DNA of 10,481 nt from a virus (lineage: Monodnaviria > Loebvirae > Hofneiviricota > Faserviricetes > Tubulavirales > Inoviridae): IMG/VR virus record IMGVR_UViG_2671180963_000001, positions 1-10,481 of that record. The stretch is one strand, 5' to 3'. Numbering within the stretch: the first letter of the stretch is position 1; every line of letters starts with the position of its first letter. The notes below the pieces were generated by a model that saw only the letters and a list, made by a program, of their open reading frames with translations, ran no database searches and was not told the DNA's origin. This document shows, piece by piece, positions 1 to 7,555 of the stretch. Both the position numbers and the translations under genes were made by a program.

Positions 1-267
1 TCAGCTGTGATCGTCATATTTGCCTGCTTCTGCTTTATTTTTCTGCTGTCGCAGATCATATGCATACTGAAGACGTAACCAAAAATCAGGAGTGCTTCCC
101 ATTATTGCTGCGATCGGAACGGCCTGCTCAGCGGTTAACGCCATTTTCCCTTCTAAAAAAGCTGGCTGGATGCCAGTTTCTTCGATAAATCGGTTAACAC
201 TAATGCCCATCTCAGCCAACTCTCTGGCAATAATTTCGCCCGGATGAGACACATCAAATTGCTGCAT
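1..267 (-). CDS. HigA-family (XRE/COG3093-type) helix-turn-helix antitoxin-like DNA-binding protein, 88 aa
   Basis: Complete ORF: ATG at 267..265, TGA at 3..1. Sequence (HPGEII...NRFIEETGIQ...LEGKMALTAEQAV...GSTPDFWLRLQ) matches my recollection of the HigA/VapI antidote HTH family. SD-like AGGA about 10 nt upstream. An 18-bp perfect palindrome lies 25 bp upstream of the start. Confidence 0.65.
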   Translation of the reverse strand: MQQFDVSHPGEIIARELAEMGISVNRFIEETGIQPAFLEGKMALTAEQAVPIAAIMGSTPDFWLRLQYAYDLRQQKNKAEAGKYDDHS

Positions 268-291
268 AACTAATCATCCTGTCAGATGCGG

Positions 292-309
292 ATTTGCGCA
301 TGCGCAAAT
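292..309. promoter_or_regulatory. 18-bp perfect palindrome ATTTGCGCATGCGCAAAT (copy 1), putative operator between the 104-aa ORF and the HigA-like gene
   Basis: Read directly: its reverse complement equals itself, and an identical copy occurs at 667..684. It sits in the 58-bp spacer just upstream of the HigA-like RBS and start. Confidence 0.5.
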
Positions 310-325
310 TATCACTTTGAGCATG

Positions 326-640
326 TTAGATCGATTGTTCAAAGTAACGGGCCAGAGCCGTATAAATCAGTCGGTTTAACGGTTGTTGATCGTCTTCGGC
401 CTGCTGTTTCGCTCGTTTGATCGTATCCGGATGGAACCAGATCCCCTGATAATCTGAGCCTTTCGGACTGGAGAAGTACCGTATGTGTACATGCCCTGCT
501 TTTCGTTGGTTCAGATACCACTCAACGATTTCACTGGCTATGTCGGCCTTTAACTCATCGCGAATGCCTGCCAGATTATTAACCGGCTGGATTAACTCAT
601 CTTCAATTTTCAGTCGGATAAACTTCAACTTTGTAGCCAT
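326..640 (-). CDS. Hypothetical 104-aa protein immediately upstream of the HigA-like gene; possible toxin partner or phage accessory protein
   Basis: ATG at 640..638 preceded by GGGGA (rc of 645..649); TAA at 328..326. The ORF track extends it to 778 (150 aa) using a GTG that overlaps the pIV stop as GTGA; I prefer the ATG because the palindromic operator and RBS sit directly upstream. I recognise no family. Confidence 0.45.
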   Translation of the reverse strand: MATKLKFIRLKIEDELIQPVNNLAGIRDELKADIASEIVEWYLNQRKAGHVHIRYFSSPKGSDYQGIWFHPDTIKRAKQQAEDDQQPLNRLIYTALARYFEQSI

Positions 641-666
641 AGATTCCCCATAAGAATTGACGAGAA

Positions 667-684
667 ATTTGCGCATGCGCAAAT
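667..684. promoter_or_regulatory. 18-bp perfect palindrome ATTTGCGCATGCGCAAAT (copy 2), putative operator upstream of the 104-aa ORF
   Basis: Identical to the copy at 292..309, located 27 bp upstream of the ATG at 640. Two identical dyad sites before consecutive genes suggest autoregulation by the HTH protein. Confidence 0.5.
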
Positions 685-774
685 CACGCCGTTCATGATT
701 TACACAATCAATCAACAGTCGGTGTCTCAGTACGGCCAGCTCCTCACGGAGCTGCGGGGCTGGCCGCCCTGCTC

Positions 775-1986
775 TCACCGCCTGATTTTTCTGGCCTGAA
801 GTACAATAATGATGTCTGTTTTTGCTTTTTCAGTTGCCGTTGTTCCGAACCATGACGGCAAAAATGACAGGCCCGTATCTGCATTACTGTCTTTATTCTC
901 AGCCAGACCACCAAGTAAAATTATGTCGCCATCCTTGAGCGAAACATCGGTGTTCACCTCCCGTTTAATGAGCGTCGGGCTGTTATTCACCCCAGTCTCT
1001 GTTTTTGCAAAATTAGACAGTTGCTGATGAATATTAAGGTCAATCGTAGCAGCCCGGATTTGCGGCTGAACGTTAAAAATTACGCCACTTGAACGATAAT
1101 CAATGGACTGAACCGGACGACCATCAACATAGCTGACCTGACCGAGTACCGGCACGTCAGATCCCACAGAAAATGATGCTTTAGAGCCATTTCTGACCCG
1201 CAATTGTGGCGAACTGACGACGTGAAAACGGCTGTCTGTTCTGAACAACTCATAAAGTGCATCGAGCGATCCAGAACTGAAACGGACAAAGTTGCTGAGT
1301 CCTTGTGCAGTACCCGTTTCTATTGTGAATTTTCCCGACATAAGTTTGGCAGCCAGTGCCAGGCCAGAACCATTTCGCTCAGACGTCTGAACCTCAAACA
1401 CGTACCCGGCGACAATAACTTCTTCGGCGGCCCGGTCGATAAGAGGAAGCAAATCTTCGACCCGCTGAATGTCTTTTTTCGTACCGTAAAAAACAAGTAC
1501 ATCCCCATTTCTGCTCAAAAAATCGGATGCGGTATTGTCTTTAATCATCGCAGGAGAAACATCGCCATGCCCTATTTGCCCACCATTTGAAAATGACCCG
1601 CTCACTTGTGACTGAAGAATATCAGCCAGATAAGCAACAGAACGGTACTGTGGTGTGTAAACAAATGAATATTTCGGGGCTTCGTATACTTTTTTCTCCT
1701 GGAGATAAAAGTAATCCACACCATTTTTTCTGGCTACAGAGACCCCGGCATTCTGGAGATAACGCATAATAAACGTATACTCATCCATATCTGGCGTAAT
1801 ATTGAAATTAACTTGTCGTTTGTCCGTGATAAGTTCAGGAGAAACCATGAACGGTTTTCTCATAACTTCAGTATAAAACAAAGTAATGGCATCATTAAGC
1901 GTTAATCCTGAGAGATTCAGTATAACGCCTTTTGATAATGCAGGTGGAATCATAAATACCACTATTATGATATAAAATAATTTCAT
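775..1986 (-). CDS. Filamentous-phage secretin (pIV-like, GspD/PulD secretin family), about 403 aa
   Basis: C-terminal secretin domain motifs (SSPQLRVRNGSKASFSVGSDVPV..., TLIKREVNTDVSLKDGDIILLGGL). N-terminal signal peptide from MKLFYIIIVVFMIPPALS. Start taken at ATG 1986..1984 with GGGGG RBS, 1 nt after the pI stop, rather than the track's upstream start at 2034. TGA at 777..775. Confidence 0.85.
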   Translation of the reverse strand: MKLFYIIIVVFMIPPALSKGVILNLSGLTLNDAITLFYTEVMRKPFMVSPELITDKRQVNFNITPDMDEYTFIMRYLQNAGVSVARKNGVDYFYLQEKKVYEAPKYSFVYTPQYRSVAYLADILQSQVSGSFSNGGQIGHGDVSPAMIKDNTASDFLSRNGDVLVFYGTKKDIQRVEDLLPLIDRAAEEVIVAGYVFEVQTSERNGSGLALAAKLMSGKFTIETGTAQGLSNFVRFSSGSLDALYELFRTDSRFHVVSSPQLRVRNGSKASFSVGSDVPVLGQVSYVDGRPVQSIDYRSSGVIFNVQPQIRAATIDLNIHQQLSNFAKTETGVNNSPTLIKREVNTDVSLKDGDIILLGGLAENKDSNADTGLSFLPSWFGTTATEKAKTDIIIVLQARKIRR

Positions 1987-1987
1987 A

Positions 1988-3013
1988 TTAACCCCCAGTA
2001 AAATAGGTGACAATTTCACCATCAATGATTCCACTTAAAGTAAAACCTTCTCCGTCGAACTGATTTGCCGGTAGCGTTCTAAACCGACCATTGCTGTCTG
2101 TAAGAACCACCTTGCTGACATAATCTGATTTTAACTCCCCGGCAATACGCCAGCGCTTTGAGTACGGGACATCAGGTTTCGCAATCTTTGCTGATGAAGG
2201 CAGTACAACTTCCGGTTCGGTATGTTTCGGCTCTGGTACTGACTCACCTCTAATATCCACCCAGACCGTTCTTATTGAATATATAGAAGCCAGTACAATA
2301 AATAATAAAAATGCAATTTTTACCCAAAGAAAGGCGGATGAAAAAACGTTTTGTCTAGAGTCTGTTGTCGCTTCCATTCCGTTAGTGGTTTCATAAGATT
2401 TGTATAATTCAAAAACGGCTTTTTTGTACTGATAGTTACGAGTACTGACTTTATTATTTTTGAATACTTTGGCACCAGAAAAAACATCGACACGATATGA
2501 CTTTGATAGCCCCAGAGATTTTAGCTTGGTCATCCGGTATGTCGATTCAATACGCTCTTTAAGATACCGGGGTACACCATCTACACCCTGATTGATGATG
2601 ACCAAATCACATGATACCCCACTAACAGCATGTGTCATATGACGGTGCATTGAAATAAATCTTTTATGTGCCTCAGATAGTTTTGAGTCCGATGGCCATA
2701 TTGACCATAATTCATCAAGACAAATCAGATCACCATATTCACAAAATGCTGCTTTTTGTTCTGAAGATTCATCATCAGAGTAAAAAGGGAAGAAATCATC
2801 CTTTAATATTTCATCCGTCGATGCGAAAACAACACGACCAGGCTGCTTAGTCTTGAATTTAGAACGACAATACTCATGTATTTTCTCTTCATTTATCCCT
2901 TTGATATTGGTGATTACACGGCGGCCTGCTGAAACCGCAGGGATAATAACACTGTAAACAACCTCGTATGTTTTACCGCTCCCCATCACACCCATATACA
3001 ATGATACAGCCAT
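1988..3013 (-). CDS. Zot-like assembly ATPase (pI-like, zonula occludens toxin family P-loop NTPase), 341 aa
   Basis: Walker A motif GVMGSGKT near the N-terminus and a hydrophobic transmembrane segment (WVKIAFLLFIVLASIY) in the C-terminal half, the typical pI/Zot architecture. Start ATG 3013..3011 lies 4 nt after the pVI stop. Confidence 0.88.
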   Translation of the reverse strand: MAVSLYMGVMGSGKTYEVVYSVIIPAVSAGRRVITNIKGINEEKIHEYCRSKFKTKQPGRVVFASTDEILKDDFFPFYSDDESSEQKAAFCEYGDLICLDELWSIWPSDSKLSEAHKRFISMHRHMTHAVSGVSCDLVIINQGVDGVPRYLKERIESTYRMTKLKSLGLSKSYRVDVFSGAKVFKNNKVSTRNYQYKKAVFELYKSYETTNGMEATTDSRQNVFSSAFLWVKIAFLLFIVLASIYSIRTVWVDIRGESVPEPKHTEPEVVLPSSAKIAKPDVPYSKRWRIAGELKSDYVSKVVLTDSNGRFRTLPANQFDGEGFTLSGIIDGEIVTYFTGG

Positions 3014-3017
3014 AAAA

Positions 3018-3305
3018 TTATCCTATTACCGGAATTCGACGAATAATAAAGCGAGTCACAAAAGCTGAAAGTATTATGTTAATCCCATCTATAACTTTAA
3101 AAACAGAGAAGAAATATTTCAGGCTATCTGGAATACTTGAAATTAACGCAAGAAGTGGGAGTTGGCGATTAACCATATCGAGAATAAGCGGCACGAATTC
3201 CTGCACAATAAAATACAATGCAAAAAACACCGTAAACTTCACAATAACTGAGCGCAATAAAAACCCAAGAACGCCATATAAAACAGAGGTCATGATGCCA
3301 AACAT
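3018..3305 (-). CDS. pVI-like minor coat protein, 95 aa, highly hydrophobic
   Basis: Position between pIII-like and pI-like genes as in Ff phages; strongly hydrophobic composition; AGGTGA RBS. Assigned by synteny and composition, not motif. Confidence 0.6.
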   Translation of the reverse strand: MFGIMTSVLYGVLGFLLRSVIVKFTVFFALYFIVQEFVPLILDMVNRQLPLLALISSIPDSLKYFFSVFKVIDGINIILSAFVTRFIIRRIPVIG

Positions 3306-3314
3306 AAATCACCT

Positions 3315-4580
3315 TTATGCAGAAAGGATAATTCTGAACGCTGCTATTGAGTAAATGAACAGAAAAATAACACCAATCATCGCAGCGTTATTATTTAGTA
3401 ATGTACAATGTGTTTCTAACTTATATTGTCCGTTAAAAACATCCAGTACAGGTTTTGGACACTCCGCATATTTAATTCTTTCGCTTTCTGCATTAAGTGC
3501 ACCGGCTGAATCTTCAAAGGGGTTGAATGATAATAATGGAGATAAAATTTCAGTACCTGCAGGTATATTTTCCAGTTCAGGCGGCCCAATACCAGGATCA
3601 TCACCAAGATTAACCTGTTCTCCTGTCGATGGATTGGTTGGTGTTGTCCCTGTTGTGTCAGCAGGTAGTGTAAAATCGGGTTTGTCTGACGGTTTGAGAA
3701 AGTCAGATACAGCGGGCTTTGCAGCACCAGTTGAAGCAGTTACATCACGCGCTGTCACTGGTCTGGTGTGGTCGTATGCAAAACCAGAATACCCTGCTTC
3801 GGAGGCTGCTTTTTGCCATGCATTATTCACAACATCAGAAATAACTTCTGGCGAAAGATCTGTCTGCATTTCCGTATCTGAAATGCTATTAATAGCATCC
3901 TGTACGCTAACGGTTTTAATTACTTCATTACTACCCGGCACATAATCAGGCTGACATGTAGGCATAACCTTATTTGTACCGCAGGAAACAAGGTTTGCAG
4001 TTCGTGATGCCCAAAGCTGTGTTTTAGATGAATCAATATAAAATTTGATGGTTCTTAAATCAGACCTTGTCGGGTCTGCATTATATTGCTCAACTATGTA
4101 TGTCTGACAGAACGTCGGATTATGCTGGCATATCGACTGAGCTCCCTCAGTTGCTGTAACATAGCTTTCTGCGCCAATATTCCAGTAAAACCCTTTAACA
4201 CCCTGCTCTCCCGTTATTTCTTTTACTTTGATTTGTACGGAGTCCTCAGTTTCAATTAGCCATGCCACCGCACCGGAAGCGGCAAGAGCTATAAGCGTAC
4301 CGCGGCTTAACAAAGCCCCTCTGAGTCCAACTGATAACCACGAACGACCAGAGACACCTGCAACGGTATAAGCTTTCGAACCTGAAGCGGTAGAATTTAG
4401 ATAACCTGAAATACCTTTTAATGTTCCGTAGTATCGAGGATCATTCGCTGAGAAACCACGCTGTGTAATTTTATTTTTAATGGTTCCTGAAATGGTCTGA
4501 TTAATAACAGCTGCGTTCTCTGCACTGTATGAATAAAAGCTAATGATAGATAACAACAATGCAATTAAAAGAGTTTTCAT
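3315..4580 (-). CDS. pIII-like adsorption / minor coat protein, 421 aa
   Basis: N-terminal signal peptide (MKTLLIALLLSIISFYSYSA), internal Pro/Gly/Thr-rich linker (TTGTTPTNPSTGEQVNLGDDPGIGPPELENIP), C-terminal hydrophobic membrane anchor (AAMIGVIFLFIYSIAAF). Strong RBS AGGAGGG upstream of ATG 4580. Confidence 0.72.
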   Translation of the reverse strand: MKTLLIALLLSIISFYSYSAENAAVINQTISGTIKNKITQRGFSANDPRYYGTLKGISGYLNSTASGSKAYTVAGVSGRSWLSVGLRGALLSRGTLIALAASGAVAWLIETEDSVQIKVKEITGEQGVKGFYWNIGAESYVTATEGAQSICQHNPTFCQTYIVEQYNADPTRSDLRTIKFYIDSSKTQLWASRTANLVSCGTNKVMPTCQPDYVPGSNEVIKTVSVQDAINSISDTEMQTDLSPEVISDVVNNAWQKAASEAGYSGFAYDHTRPVTARDVTASTGAAKPAVSDFLKPSDKPDFTLPADTTGTTPTNPSTGEQVNLGDDPGIGPPELENIPAGTEILSPLLSFNPFEDSAGALNAESERIKYAECPKPVLDVFNGQYKLETHCTLLNNNAAMIGVIFLFIYSIAAFRIILSA

Positions 4581-4677
4581 TTACCCTCCTAATCCTTTTA
4601 TTACTGCCCAGGCACAAAGAAGCCCCCAGAGAAAACAGGTAATTAGCCAGAAATGTAATATCACAGAAACTCCTGAA

Positions 4678-4695
4678 GGCAGGGTTTCCCCTGCC
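4678..4695 (-). terminator. GC-rich hairpin (7-bp stem GGCAGGG/CCCTGCC, 4-nt loop) just downstream of the major coat gene; possible attenuator/terminator
   Basis: Inverted repeat read directly, about 8 nt past the pVIII stop on the minus strand. The downstream tract is only moderately U-rich, so termination is weakly supported. An analogous terminator follows gene VIII in Ff phages. Confidence 0.25.
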
Positions 4696-4702
4696 CGTAT
4701 TA

Positions 4703-4924
4703 TCAGGCCCCACGGATCATACGCAGAACTGTTTTTGCCCCGGCAATGGAGGCATAAAGACCAACCAAAATCCCGGCTACGGACATAATTGCCACAATTA
4801 CACTGTCGAATGACACTGCATTAGTCAATGCAGTAAAATCCACTCCGGCAGACTCTGCTGCATTAGCCAGAAAAGGTACTACGGAAGCAATAACAACAGC
4901 TGATTTCAAAATGGTCTTTTTCAT
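4703..4924 (-). CDS. Major coat protein (pVIII-like) precursor, 73 aa
   Basis: Signal peptide MKKTILKSAVVIASVVPFLANA followed by an acidic N-terminus, hydrophobic core and basic C-terminus (KTVLRMIRGA), the classic pVIII layout. Start taken at the internal ATG 4924..4922 (track ORF extends to 5014). Confidence 0.75.
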   Translation of the reverse strand: MKKTILKSAVVIASVVPFLANAAESAGVDFTALTNAVSFDSVIVAIMSVAGILVGLYASIAGAKTVLRMIRGA

Positions 4925-4926
4925 AA

Positions 4927-5145
4927 TTAGGCTCTCTTTATCATATTTAAAACGAGTCCAATACAGTGTGATACTAAATAAAGGACGATTACAGAGGTAA
5001 AAGCAGTTCCCCATACCAGTGCAATATCTTCTGCCGGAGGGAGCTGCTGATATGGCAACTCAGAGGAATTTAATGTTATTATCTGGCAGTTCTGCTCAGT
5101 ATTGCCATCACAAATCTTACCAGTCATTATATTCTGAGAAGCCAT
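4927..5145 (-). CDS. Small membrane protein (72 aa) in the gVII/gIX position; putative minor coat or assembly protein
   Basis: Lies between the gV-like and pVIII-like genes; C-terminal hydrophobic segment (IALVWGTAFTSVIVLYLVSHCIGLVL); RBS AAGGT overlaps the gV stop; its stop is 2 nt before the pVIII start. Confidence 0.45.
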   Translation of the reverse strand: MASQNIMTGKICDGNTEQNCQIITLNSSELPYQQLPPAEDIALVWGTAFTSVIVLYLVSHCIGLVLNMIKRA

Positions 5146-5154
5146 AGCGATACC

Positions 5155-5442
5155 TTATTTAGTCTGTTCTTTATTTTCCTGATATGGAATCAGAACGATT
5201 CTTCCTACCCGTAATTTCTGGAAATCACCGACGTAAATACTGGATGGATGTAATGTATATAATCCCGCCGGGTATGGTGCCTGACCCGCGTCAAGATTCA
5301 ACTTGAAGAGTTGTGGATAATCCTGGCCAAGAAAAATATATGCAGACTGCTCATTAATTGTATACGCCTGCCCGGTCGACTTCGACACGCCAGAACGCGT
5401 ATCGGCAATGGCCTGAGACTGTTTAATTTCAATCTTAATCAT
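5155..5442 (-). CDS. ssDNA-binding protein (gene V protein-like), 95 aa
   Basis: Recognisable similarity to M13 gene V protein as I recall it (MIKVEIKPSQAQFTTRSGVSRQGKPYSLNEQLCYVDLG...GLYTVHLSSFKVGQF versus MIKIEIKQSQAIADTRSGVSKSTGQAYTINEQSAYIFLG...GLYTLHPSSIYVGDF). AGAGGA RBS. Confidence 0.9.
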   Translation of the reverse strand: MIKIEIKQSQAIADTRSGVSKSTGQAYTINEQSAYIFLGQDYPQLFKLNLDAGQAPYPAGLYTLHPSSIYVGDFQKLRVGRIVLIPYQENKEQTK

Positions 5443-5454
5443 TTAAATATCCTC

Positions 5455-6570
5455 TTATGCAACATGCAAATAACGTGGTTTCACATACCATGATGGAATA
5501 AAGCATTCACTTACTGATACTTCTCTCACTTTCTTAACAATAACGGGGCTAAATTTGGAAATATTACACCGCTGAGCAATGTCAATACCTATTTTTCTAA
5601 GCCTGGCACGATGGGTTTGCACCTGTGTTTTAGAAAAATCAAATGAGTGACCGTGCATCCACTGGATAGCATACATCGCAGTGGTATTCGCTGATCGAGT
5701 TGAGTCAACAATGCCTTCACTGATTAAATGTTCACTAATCGTTTCAAAATCCATCGACGTCACCATAAGCTTTTTATCAAGAGCTAAAAAATCATCATGT
5801 AAATTATTGAGTATTGAATAGTCGGAAAGCCCCCAGTAAATAAGATGGTTACGTTGCAGATACCGGGATTTAAGTTTTTGCTCAAATCTGACTACGCCCT
5901 GTTCCTGACAGAAATCAATAATCTTTTTGATGTATGAAACTTCAGCTGATGAATCCCCGAATTTATTCTTTATTTTATTAAGGGAGTGAAGCTTAATTTC
6001 ATGTGCTTTATTATATACAGTCGGATAAATGAGCAAGGCGTTTCCTTTTTTGGATAGCCAGTCAACTGATTTACCGTTGCTGTGTAATCGCGGCTCACTA
6101 TTGCGATACCGTAATGTTGAAAGGCCCGATATATAGTCATCTACATTATCTGCTCCGACTGTTCGGTTGGATGTAATGTGAATTTCACGAATACATGCGC
6201 CATCAGTAACCGTTCCGGCCTTTTCAGTTTCACTTGCCTGTCTCTGCCACAATTTCGTACATTTTGTGAATTCCGGCAGACCAAGGTCATTCAGGATCCG
6301 GTTGTATACCTGTACACAGGCATCAACAGAAGTGTGACCAAACAAATTGTCCAGTCTGTTCCATCGGGATGGATTTCCCGACATTTTCAGAATCGAACCT
6401 TTAATCGATATCGAAACCTGATCGCAAAAAGATCCTTTATGTTGAAACACAGGCTGATTCAGTGAACCGGCCTCCCCTGTTTCAAGCTGAATGCGCTGAT
6501 AAGCCACTTCACCCAGGATAGGAAGCTGGTAACCAAAGTCCTGTTCGATGGTAAGCCAGTCAAAAAACAT
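5455..6570 (-). CDS. Rolling-circle replication initiation protein (gII-like), about 371 aa
   Basis: Similarity to Ff gene II protein in the C-terminal half (VRFEQKLKSRYLQ resembles M13 VRFEARIKTRYLK). Start taken at ATG 6570..6568 with GGGAG RBS. The track's start at 6654 is a TTG with no RBS and falls inside a putative promoter. Confidence 0.8.
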   Translation of the reverse strand: MFFDWLTIEQDFGYQLPILGEVAYQRIQLETGEAGSLNQPVFQHKGSFCDQVSISIKGSILKMSGNPSRWNRLDNLFGHTSVDACVQVYNRILNDLGLPEFTKCTKLWQRQASETEKAGTVTDGACIREIHITSNRTVGADNVDDYISGLSTLRYRNSEPRLHSNGKSVDWLSKKGNALLIYPTVYNKAHEIKLHSLNKIKNKFGDSSAEVSYIKKIIDFCQEQGVVRFEQKLKSRYLQRNHLIYWGLSDYSILNNLHDDFLALDKKLMVTSMDFETISEHLISEGIVDSTRSANTTAMYAIQWMHGHSFDFSKTQVQTHRARLRKIGIDIAQRCNISKFSPVIVKKVREVSVSECFIPSWYVKPRYLHVA

Positions 6571-6629
6571 GTGTCTCCCGGAATTGACGCGCAAGGGTCT
6601 AAACTGATCTTTAACGGTGTCAGTTATAC

Positions 6630-6685
6630 TAAATTGGAGAGATCTCAGTGTCAATATAATTGATACCGTAAAATGTCAAAACTGA
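6630..6685. promoter_or_regulatory. Divergent, overlapping promoter region between the rep gene and the CI-like regulator gene (putative genetic switch)
   Basis: Minus strand: TTGACA (rc of 6674..6679), 15-bp spacer, TATATT (rc of 6653..6658), driving rep. Plus strand: perfect TATAAT at 6655..6660 with a weak -35 TTGGAG at 6634..6639, driving the regulator. Motif-level only. Confidence 0.35.
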
Positions 6686-6720
6686 CCCTCGGTGTCAGCA
6701 TGCTAAAAACAGGAGGTAGA

Positions 6721-7206
6721 ATGAATGCCTGTATGAATAAAACAGAGAGTTCACTGGTAATGGCAGCAGACAAAGCATGCGCAGAAAGGATCAAACAATC
6801 GATTCTTCAGAACTTCACGTACGATGATATTGAAAATGAAACCGGGATCAGTGTCAGTACATTGAAACGCCTGGCATCTGGTGACCGTGAACCGAAACTC
6901 ATCGAAATTCGACAGATTGCAAAAGCTACAGGAAGGAATCCGGTTTGGTTGGCGTTTGGAAACGACGCAGGTTATGAAATTGAAACCGTGTCCGCAGATA
7001 TGAAATTAGTTGAGCCAACAGCCAGGTACGAAATTAAAGGAGCTACAGATAGCTCAGCCGATCATGAAGTAAAGATCAGGGTCATCGCTGCGATAAAAGA
7101 CATGCGTTTGGAAGATGTTGTTTTTATTGAAAGAATGACAGAGTTACTCAATCTCCAGAATACAATTCAGAACATTTCTGGACGAAAAATGAAGCCGCCA
7201 AGATGA
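6721..7206 (+). CDS. Phage CI-like repressor family HTH regulator, 161 aa
   Basis: HTH region ETGISVSTLKRLASGDREPKLIEIRQIAKATGRNPVWLAFGND resembles the phage CI-repressor N-terminal DNA-binding domain. Transcribed divergently from rep. Start taken at ATG 6721 four nt after AGGAGG (6711..6716); the track starts at 6673. Confidence 0.6.
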   Translation: MNACMNKTESSLVMAADKACAERIKQSILQNFTYDDIENETGISVSTLKRLASGDREPKLIEIRQIAKATGRNPVWLAFGNDAGYEIETVSADMKLVEPTARYEIKGATDSSADHEVKIRVIAAIKDMRLEDVVFIERMTELLNLQNTIQNISGRKMKPPR

Positions 7207-7213
7207 TAACGTG

Positions 7214-7258
7214 CCCCGGGAAACCGGGGTAAAGTTCGGGTGTCACAGAACCCCGAAC
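7214..7258. other. Cluster of GC-rich hairpins in the regulator/ORF76 spacer
   Basis: Hairpin 1 at 7214..7229 (CCCCGG GAAA CCGGGG, GNRA-type loop). Hairpin 2 at 7234..7258 (GTTCGGG, 11-nt loop, CCCGAAC). No U-tract follows either, so they are not canonical terminators. Confidence 0.4.
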
Positions 7259-7324
7259 CGCTTCGCGGCACAAAATCGACAAAACACAGCAGTAATACCC
7301 CACTACCTTTCGAAAGGATCAGAA

Positions 7325-7555
7325 ATGCATAACGAAATTGAGAAGTGGCTGAATGAACAAGCCAATGATAATCCAGTTGCGCGAGCTGAACTGGCAAGAA
7401 CTCTTGTCAAAAAAGTTTATGATTTTGTTAAGTTTAATCGCCCTGAGGGTGAGGGGCTGGATGGTCGTGATGGCCCGGAAAGGCAAAGTCTGGCTAAAAT
7501 TGTTGATGCAGCAGAAGATCACTATATAAACATGTGCGAAATAAAAAACAAGTAA
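7325..7555 (+). CDS. Hypothetical small protein, 76 aa
   Basis: ATG 7325 six nt after AGGA (7315..7318); TAA at 7553..7555. The track ORF starts at 7211, probably at a non-ATG codon. No family recognised. Confidence 0.45.
   Translation: MHNEIEKWLNEQANDNPVARAELARTLVKKVYDFVKFNRPEGEGLDGRDGPERQSLAKIVDAAEDHYINMCEIKNK

Follow-up and report, generated by a model that had tools for sequence, protein, structure and literature searches.

Ribbon-helix-helix (RHH) repressors with palindromic operators, and operator networks that extend over a whole plasmid, are both kinds of regulation already known. MetJ, Arc, CopG and omega read DNA through a β-ribbon, with adjacent RHH units binding co-operatively to short repeats, and are autoregulated; on its palindromic operator of 16 bp, MetJ binds as two RHH dimers spaced 8 bp apart, and omega of pSM19035 controls several plasmid operons. 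In TraY of the F plasmid, an accessory protein of the relaxosome that also activates the tra promoter, two RHH repeats lie in a single chain, and the monomers bind co-operatively to inverted and direct subsites. The IncP-1 plasmids (RK2/R751) encode ParA and KorB, and the KorB operator, O_B, is a short palindrome that occurs a dozen or more times (12 sites on IncP plasmids), at promoters and inside transfer operons. Here we describe a 10,481-nucleotide stretch of DNA (the window; IMG/VR virus record IMGVR_UViG_2671180963_000001, positions 1 to 10,481, Inoviridae) that holds a dif-integrated filamentous prophage of E. coli, and in it a short module consisting of two identical palindromes, a gene for a protein of 104 amino acids (aa) and a HigA-like helix-turn-helix (HTH) gene. 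An uncharacterised single-chain RHH family at the position of traY, a palindrome network of ~12–18 copies per plasmid and the occurrence of both in a filamentous prophage appear to be new.

The module comprises the following features.

667–684 (16-bp core 668–683), no strand assigned: palindrome P1, ATTTGCGCATGCGCAAAT, exact match, ending 26 nt 5′ of the ATG of the 104-aa gene.
326–640 (ATG at 640, stop at 326), minus strand: gene for the 104-aa protein, a predicted single-chain tandem RHH (TraY-fold) DNA-binding protein and the proposed binder of the palindrome.
292–309, no strand assigned: palindrome P2, identical to P1, exact match, ending 24 nt 5′ of the HigA-like ATG.
1–267, minus strand: gene for an 88-aa XRE-type HTH protein of the HigA family (TIGR02607, phrog_1381), an orphan, variable accessory gene of the phage group.

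ATTTGCGCATGCGCAAAT is a perfect 18-bp palindrome whose two copies start 375 bp apart, and the order on the minus strand is secretin gene (2034–775), 104-aa open reading frame (ORF) and 88-aa HigA-like ORF, so that each palindrome stands just 5′ of one of two co-oriented genes behind the secretin gene, as the original prediction had described. None of 200 dinucleotide-preserving shuffles yielded two matches (0.01 expected), and there is no third copy in the window when up to 3 mismatches are tolerated. Extended by a single base at either end, the copies make up an inverted pair of 20 nt, and P2 begins 16 nt past the stop codon of the RHH gene. A full prophage carries four palindromes, two of them outside the window edge: in the prophage of E. 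coli LD39-1 (locus L001), which is 99.9% identical, the sequence past window position 1 holds a 59-aa ORF, two further palindrome cores and the exact E. coli dif. The position of P2 is kept in all prophages with the HigA-like gene, with one mismatch in the common Salmonella variant. A scan of 185,579 genomes with the 16-mer gave matches that, among those listed, were mostly single, scattered and in unrelated taxa, and a literature search with the palindrome string returned unrelated papers only.

The 104-aa protein gave no toxin or defence family match in Pfam, NCBIfam, PHROGs or PADLOC, in keeping with the earlier remark that it does not resemble the RelE/HigB toxins, and family searches returned weak Arc-like/RHH matches in each of its halves. 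Structure prediction and profile searches, proposed at the outset with a novel toxin in mind, pointed instead to a TraY-like tandem RHH protein. The AlphaFold2 model obtained with the family alignment (predicted local distance difference test, pLDDT, 95.3; predicted template modelling score, pTM, 0.88) shows a strand-helix-helix topology twice, with the β-α-α units pairing into the two-stranded antiparallel ribbon characteristic of the RHH (MetJ/Arc) superfamily and with two RHH repeats per chain, as in TraY. Nearly all matches of a 29-member profile in the PDB were RHH proteins, namely ORF56 (E = 6e-4), SvtR, omega, Arc, CopG and ParG. By its predicted structure, the 104-aa protein is a single-chain tandem RHH DNA-binding protein with the fold of F-plasmid TraY and not a RelE/HigB-like toxin. 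Unlike the non-covalent homodimers MetJ, Arc, CopG and omega, this protein would be a covalent pseudo-dimer with two unlike ribbon strands. It differs from TraY in having no detectable sequence similarity to it: PF05509 (TraY) gave no match at E ≤ 1 for the window protein nor at E ≤ 0.1 for 29 family members, and TraY is absent from the PDB sequence matches of the family at E ≤ 10.

The family is small. A word-indexed search returned 10 proteins and an exhaustive search of 1.84 billion proteins 33 cluster representatives, of ~100–110 aa and aligning end to end; all members named by any source are labelled ‘hypothetical’. A distant member from Marinobacter lies in a non-tra context with no repeated palindromes, and in a search of viral contigs for the locus an identical phage was the sole match. 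It had been cautioned that a 150-aa product, initiated at the GTG at 778, would place the palindrome inside coding sequence. We rejected this form and take the ATG as the correct start, because the diverged homologues (60–63% identity, 99–104 aa) share the same Met and because RefSeq annotates the 104-aa form. The longer form is further contradicted by its 46-codon extension, in which E. coli and Salmonella disagree at ~10 of the 46 residues, against ~5 differences in the 104-residue core, and which overlaps a conserved hairpin with compensatory changes.

The palindrome was sought in other filamentous phages, as had been advised, and was found again beside the same gene. Its 16-bp core, TTTGCGCATGCGCAAA, is 100% conserved 24–26 nt 5′ of the RHH start in the E. 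coli prophage, in the two Salmonella filamentous phages L002 and L003 (63% protein identity) and in the related loci L004 and L005, amid flanking DNA that cannot be aligned and upstream of RHH proteins just 60–63% identical. L002 and L004 carry a second palindrome ~170 bp before attP/dif. The HigA-like gene is missing from all four relatives at the loci examined. Since these phages keep the palindrome without it, the RHH and HigA-like genes do not form an obligate pair, and upkeep of the palindrome does not require the HTH protein.

Distant members of the RHH family are encoded on conjugative plasmids of the MOBF/MPF_F type: pECL_B of Enterobacter cloacae (49% identity to the window protein), pLD91-1-76kb of E. 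coli (42%), Citrobacter and Salmonella plasmids, and the Yersinia pYE854/pWKY group (39% for pWKY). There the gene lies directly 5′ of the F-type transfer genes (DsbC, a pilin-like gene, TraL, TraE, TraK, TraB and TraV), which is the position of traY on F, and is itself preceded by a small ORF that also resembles a tandem RHH protein. This place at the head of the tra operon was seen in five plasmid or plasmid-like lineages (pECL_B, pLD91, pWKY, L023 and the P0020 contig); the phage copy, in contrast, follows the secretin gene. On each of pECL_B, pLD91 and pWKY the palindrome is the top-ranked perfect palindrome (k = 12–16), with 13 exact and 5 near copies on pECL_B (16 of the 18 intergenic), 14 exact and 2 near copies on pLD91-1-76kb and, on pWKY, 11 exact and 2 near copies of a symmetric variant, TTTGTGCATGCACAAA. 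With 18, 16 and 13 copies, mostly intergenic, the plasmids show the pattern of a KorB/O_B-type network. No description of this plasmid palindrome network was found in the searchable literature.

Little else is common to phages and plasmids. In tblastx comparisons of the phages with the three whole plasmids the RHH gene was the sole shared coding sequence, and in blastn comparisons the shared non-coding sequence was limited to the palindromes and one hairpin element. Single half-sites numbered 18, 11 and 14 against compositional expectations of 9.7, 7.9 and 9.7, an excess that is at most weak and for this reason points to the full dyad, which would hold two protomers, as the functional unit. 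The prophage is carried by 9 of 5426 complete E. coli genomes, often in tandem; the plasmid family is absent from these nine lysogens and present in four other E. coli genomes. The plasmids also encode a partner of ParA with a KorB DNA-binding domain (PF08535, 2.1e-8), and the 41 plasmids with KorB are the same as those with the RHH gene. In pECL_B and pWKY two palindromes lie 5′ of parA-korB; in pLD91 there is no palindrome 5′ of parA.

Two further observations were made on the plasmids. Inside the 5′ end of the DsbC-family gene, ~0.6–0.8 kb 3′ of the TraY-like gene, a palindrome is kept in four lineages (pECL_B 29511, pLD91 19009, pWKY 35452 and L023 1771), making it a candidate operator within a coding region that is maintained across lineages. 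There is also a second perfect palindrome of low copy number (3 copies), with the forms CGTTACATGTAACG on pECL_B, CGTTAGCGCTAACG on pWKY and CGTTACGCGTAACG; its sites are at 148, 8978 and 52569 on pECL_B, 22492, 52467 and 53681 on pWKY and 9094 on pLD91, and it does not occur in the phage. It resembles the IncP KorA/KorB operators (O_B/O_A) and parS, from which we infer a candidate site for the plasmid KorB/ParB homologue.

Taking these results together, we favour, at a probability of roughly 0.5, a reading in which the palindromes are operators bound by the RHH protein and the module came from a plasmid; the operator role is predicted from the position of the sites. RHH is the preferred binder because it is the sole protein common to all replicons that keep the palindrome, and because the phage site lies at a constant distance 5′ of the RHH gene, the classic layout of an autoregulated RHH repressor. 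A phage-encoded binder is further argued for by the nine lysogens, which lack the plasmid family yet conserve the prophage sites. In the proposed mechanism the core TTTGCGCATGCGCAAA would be the operator of the 104-aa protein, two monomers, each a pseudo-dimeric RHH unit, sitting head to head on two 8-bp half-sites; the double met-box of MetJ is likewise a 16-bp dyad of two 8-bp half-sites. The four operators of a prophage would stand 24–29 nt 5′ of the starts of the RHH gene, of the HigA-like gene with the 59-aa ORF behind it and of a third small cassette, with the fourth just 5′ of a hairpin element before dif. Bound protein would autoregulate its own gene and would either shut off the accessory cassettes or block read-through into them from the morphogenesis operon. 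The sites may thus act on weak local promoters or on such read-through, which would have to pass a hairpin at 720–780. As the operators are identical, each RHH protein, that of the phage and that of the plasmid, is predicted to recognise the sites of the other as well, so that the regulation of phage and plasmid would be coupled. The earlier suggestion of a phage regulatory pair was pointed in the right direction, the regulator on this reading being the 104-aa protein upstream and not the HTH protein.

Several points weigh against this reading. The ribbon strands of the pseudo-dimer are unlike (KFIRLK and YQGIWF), which makes an asymmetric site the more natural target. A perfect dyad of 16–18 bp would be the preference of a true homodimer, for example a ParB/KorB protein or an XRE HTH protein. 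On the plasmids no palindrome lies 5′ of the TraY-like gene or of its upstream partner, while parA-korB of pECL_B and pWKY has two, and the scattered distribution is like that of the KorB O_B sites on IncP; the presence of both proteins in the same 41 plasmids means that co-occurrence cannot separate KorB from RHH as the binder. No sigma-70-like promoter was found in window positions 1–900, including around the palindromes, and the putative DNA-facing residues (F/R/K) show no obvious covariation with the Yersinia operator variant.

The main rival reading is that the palindromes are binding or loading sites for a plasmid-encoded protein, most likely the KorB/ParB-like partner of ParA, the RHH protein then having a TraY- or TrbA-like target of its own; we regard this as possible but distinctly less probable than an RHH binder. 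The phage would have acquired the sites with plasmid DNA and would use them for sensing the plasmid, for silencing by it, or for hitching its replicative form onto the partition system. The ~12–18 mostly intergenic copies, some inside tra operons, mirror the IncP KorB regulon, the sites 5′ of parA-korB occur in two of three lineages, and the perfect dyad with at most a weak half-site excess suits a homodimeric HTH protein; the ParA partner has a KorB DNA-binding domain, and no palindrome stands before the plasmid TraY-like gene. However, the phage has no KorB, none of the nine lysogens (0/9) has the plasmid family although their sites are perfect while the flanks diverge, and pLD91 is without a site 5′ of parA. 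The operator itself differs (TTTGCGCATGCGCAAA here, TTTAGCSGCTAAA for O_B), and the three-copy palindrome CGTTAC(AT/GC)GTAACG or CGTTAGCGCTAACG is much nearer to IncP O_B/O_A (TTTAGCSGCTAAA / GTTTAGCTAAAC) and to parS, so that on the same plasmids this separate palindrome would, we infer, be the better KorB candidate. An action of the palindromes as hairpins, in single-stranded DNA (the packaged or entering phage (+) strand or the transferred plasmid strand) or in mRNA directly 5′ of ribosome-binding sites, with roles in priming, protection, processing or translational control, seems unlikely. Both replicon types pass through a single-stranded stage, the phage copies stand 24–29 nt before starts and many plasmid copies lie in very short operon gaps, 15–25 nt before the next start, and the shared hairpin element in the neighbourhood folds better on the sense strand. 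Yet short operon gaps impose proximity to a start codon in any case, a 7-bp stem with a 4-nt loop is weak and generic and would not need conservation of all 16 positions, the loop CATG included, the symmetric double change in Yersinia fits protein read-out of the dyad as well as stem pairing, and there is no match to an Rfam family.

The HigA-like gene had suggested two other explanations. The 88-aa protein exceeds the cut-off of the HigA antitoxin model TIGR02607 (55.6 bits against 47.7), as expected from the original prediction, and matches phrog_1381 (‘plasmid antitoxin with HTH domain’) at 4.8e-12. That it binds the palindromes as a dimer and autoregulates both genes would agree with the dimeric HTH structure and palindromic operators of HigA antitoxins and with the palindrome 24 nt 5′ of its gene; it is nevertheless very unlikely, since the palindrome stays 5′ of the RHH gene in Salmonella and other phages that lack a HigA gene, and ~12–18 copies occur on plasmids without a homologue of this HigA. 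Least probable of all is the originally proposed toxin-antitoxin (TA) or addiction module, with the 104-aa protein as a new type of toxin neutralised by the HigA-like protein. TA modules can lie at the ends of filamentous prophages, as PfiT/PfiA does in Pf4, and the layout is that of HigBA, a small upstream gene of about HigB size followed by a gene matching the HigA model. Unlike in HigBA, however, the upstream protein has an RHH fold and no RelE/ParE or other toxin signature, and the pair is not inherited as one, the RHH gene occurring alone in L002–L005 and at the heads of plasmid tra operons. No toxin partner for the HigA-like gene was found in the phage part of the window. Between the two genes lies a spacer of 58 nt that contains a palindrome of its own, and they show no translational coupling; the gene coupled to HigA lies downstream instead. 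It is the 59-aa ORF (orf59; WP_025693555), at 11838–12017 of L001 on the minus strand, just outside the window, which shares its first 17 nt with the end of the HigA-like gene and is thereby probably translationally coupled to it.

Relatives of the HigA-like gene and of orf59 are distributed irregularly. Loci were examined for three HigA-like relatives: those with 89% and 72% identity belong to the same prophage family, each with the same four palindromes followed by dif, and the one with 59% stands elsewhere, in a different context without palindrome or dif. Homologues of the HigA-like protein and of orf59 were absent from the pECL_B-, pLD91- and pWKY-type plasmids compared. The 59-aa ORF gave no meaningful family match; it is shortened to 28 codons in the common Salmonella prophage variant, and a 64-aa relative adjoins dif in L004 without HigA. 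The HigA-like gene would accordingly be read as an orphan, variable cargo gene under one palindrome, and as neither the regulator of the palindromes nor half of a TA pair with the 104-aa protein. This would correct a tempting mis-annotation, for a gene of the HigA family need not make a TA pair with a small gene in front of it.

Were the 104-aa protein to bind the palindrome, a ‘hypothetical’ family would gain a function, as a TraY-fold regulator heading F-type transfer operons, and an operator network of ~12–18 copies would be defined on enterobacterial and Yersinia plasmids of the pECL_B, pLD91 and pYE854 types. A filamentous prophage would be shown to share regulator and operators with these plasmids, which would offer a route to cross-regulation, plasmid exclusion or receptor control. 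Filamentous phages and conjugative plasmids are ecologically tied, as pili serve as phage receptors and both have a stage of single-stranded DNA, and the shared module suggests a regulatory link between the phage and the palindrome-bearing plasmids. We tentatively propose, as a step beyond operator binding and a good deal less certain, that a temperate filamentous phage of E. coli/Salmonella captured the single-chain RHH regulator and multi-copy operator of a MOBF/MPF_F plasmid, and that prophage and plasmid read each other's operators. If so, the protein made by the prophage could silence genes of an incoming plasmid, among them those of the leading region, of partition and of the pilus, which would amount to plasmid exclusion or to control of the phage's pilus receptor. 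The plasmid, in turn, could switch the cargo genes of the phage on or off. Phage and plasmid would then be joined in a regulatory circuit of a kind not described before, based on a regulator family that is itself uncharacterised.

The hairpin element common to phages and plasmids was located at 11633–11700 of L001 (minus strand, just outside the window) and at 3050–3107 of L002, and twice on each of two plasmids (pECL_B 28776–28833 and 18381–18429; pLD91 18264–18315 and 8618–8646), one copy following the TraY-like gene and the second an HTH gene. It consists of a long stem, kept while its sequence differs between phage and plasmid, and then GGTTGGACAAGCCG(A/T)AGGC(G/A)CGTCAG with a GCC-GNA-GGC mini-hairpin; of the two strands the gene-sense one folds better (z −3.7, and −1.2 for the other), and Rfam returned no match. 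A protein-coding role is ruled out by an in-frame TAG in the E. coli copy. As a primary oriT, the hairpin plus GGTTGGACAAGCCGWAGGCRCGTCAG element was rejected, since an F-like nic lies beside the pECL_B relaxase operon and the element occurs twice per plasmid after gene ends. The former is represented by aatGCGTGGGGTGTGacg in L012 at ~37030–37050 (pECL_B ~82,035), 5′ of the operon for an accessory protein, the coupling protein and the MobF relaxase; it is close to the nic region of the F plasmid, GCGTGGGGTGT|GGTGC, and is likely the oriT of the pECL_B plasmid family. In this respect too the plasmids differ from F, the likely oriT with its F-like nic, GCGTGGGGTGTG, lying beside the relaxase operon ~31 kb from the TraY-like gene. 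F TraY moreover uses asymmetric sby sites, where the site associated with the present family is a perfect 16-bp palindrome in many copies, and F TraY is encoded by a plasmid, the 104-aa protein by a filamentous phage.

The surrounding prophage contains genes for a G2P-type Rep, a single-stranded-DNA-binding protein, DUF2523, Zot and secretin. Two of its features adjoin the module.

775–2034, minus strand: phage secretin gene (gene IV-like), the last morphogenesis gene, upstream of the module (Pfam Secretin 6.9e-25; RefSeq annotation).
720–780, minus strand: conserved stem-loop just past the secretin stop, inside the spurious GTG extension (RNAalifold, 4 phage lineages).

Of the 22 pairs predicted for the stem-loop, 3 show compensatory double changes, and no T-run follows it. 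It is probably a terminator or attenuator, or else a hairpin of the packaging-signal type; in Ff phages the packaging-signal hairpin occupies the same place, after gene IV.

Judged from its sequence, the element is a CTXphi/Ypfphi-like phage that integrates at dif and carries the module at its variable end by dif/attR. Phages of the CTXphi/Ypfphi/CUS-1 type share insertion at dif and variable cargo between the morphogenesis genes and attR; in CTXphi the position of this module is taken by ctxAB, and in Ypfphi the attR-side position holds two uncharacterised ORFs, YPO2280a/YPO2281 (PMC4266046). The cargo differs here in being a regulator and operator set common with conjugative plasmids, plus an orphan HigA-like gene. 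In L001, L013 and L016 an exact copy of E. coli dif stands behind the fourth palindrome. At the other end, the right-hand junction with the chromosome, a hybrid dif-like site at 8790–8816 of the window (reverse complement GGTGCGCATAATGTACGACACGTTATG) has the XerC arm of E. coli dif and a different central region and other arm, and is preceded by an inverted repeat, I1, at 8737–8797 (26-nt arms 8737–8762/8772–8797, 88% complementary). The circular Salmonella relative L002 has, at ~3300–3400, two inverted dif-like arms around the same hairpin as at the window junction, which resemble the forked single-stranded attP of CTXphi and accord with a prophage inserted at dif by XerCD. The palindrome was itself considered as a dif-like/XerC site, its half-site resembling the XerC arm (TGCGCAT); this was rejected because the central spacer and XerD arm are absent and the true dif and hybrid sites are located elsewhere.

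The hybrid site adjoins chromosomal hipA and hipB. These genes (hipA, 459 aa, HipA_C 8.6e-52; hipB, 88 aa, HTH_3) occupy window positions 8893–10481 directly beside the prophage junction, so that the window does include a genuine type II TA system, outside the phage. Positions 7628–9149 hold AT-rich cargo at the attL end, a 364-aa ORF with a hydrophobic N-terminus and no Pfam match and an overlapping 151-aa ORF; the otherwise identical LD39-1 prophage has MltR-family and DUF2971 genes there instead, so the attL end is variable as well. Positions 7218–7270 (53 nt) are 94% identical to the ‘major intergenic region’ of Escherichia phage If1, with a 41-nt part 98% identical to Alteromonas phage phiAFP1, and hold GC-rich hairpins (ccccgggaaaccgggg / ccccgaac...); this segment, probably part of the replication origin, was the sole near match (megablast) of the window to the phage collection, the accessory end having none. 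In E. coli LD39-1 a second tandem copy of the prophage (L001 20800–25800) is decaying: the annotation shows fragments or shortened ORFs for secretin, for Zot, for the HigA-like protein and for the RHH protein. All four palindromes of this copy are still intact.

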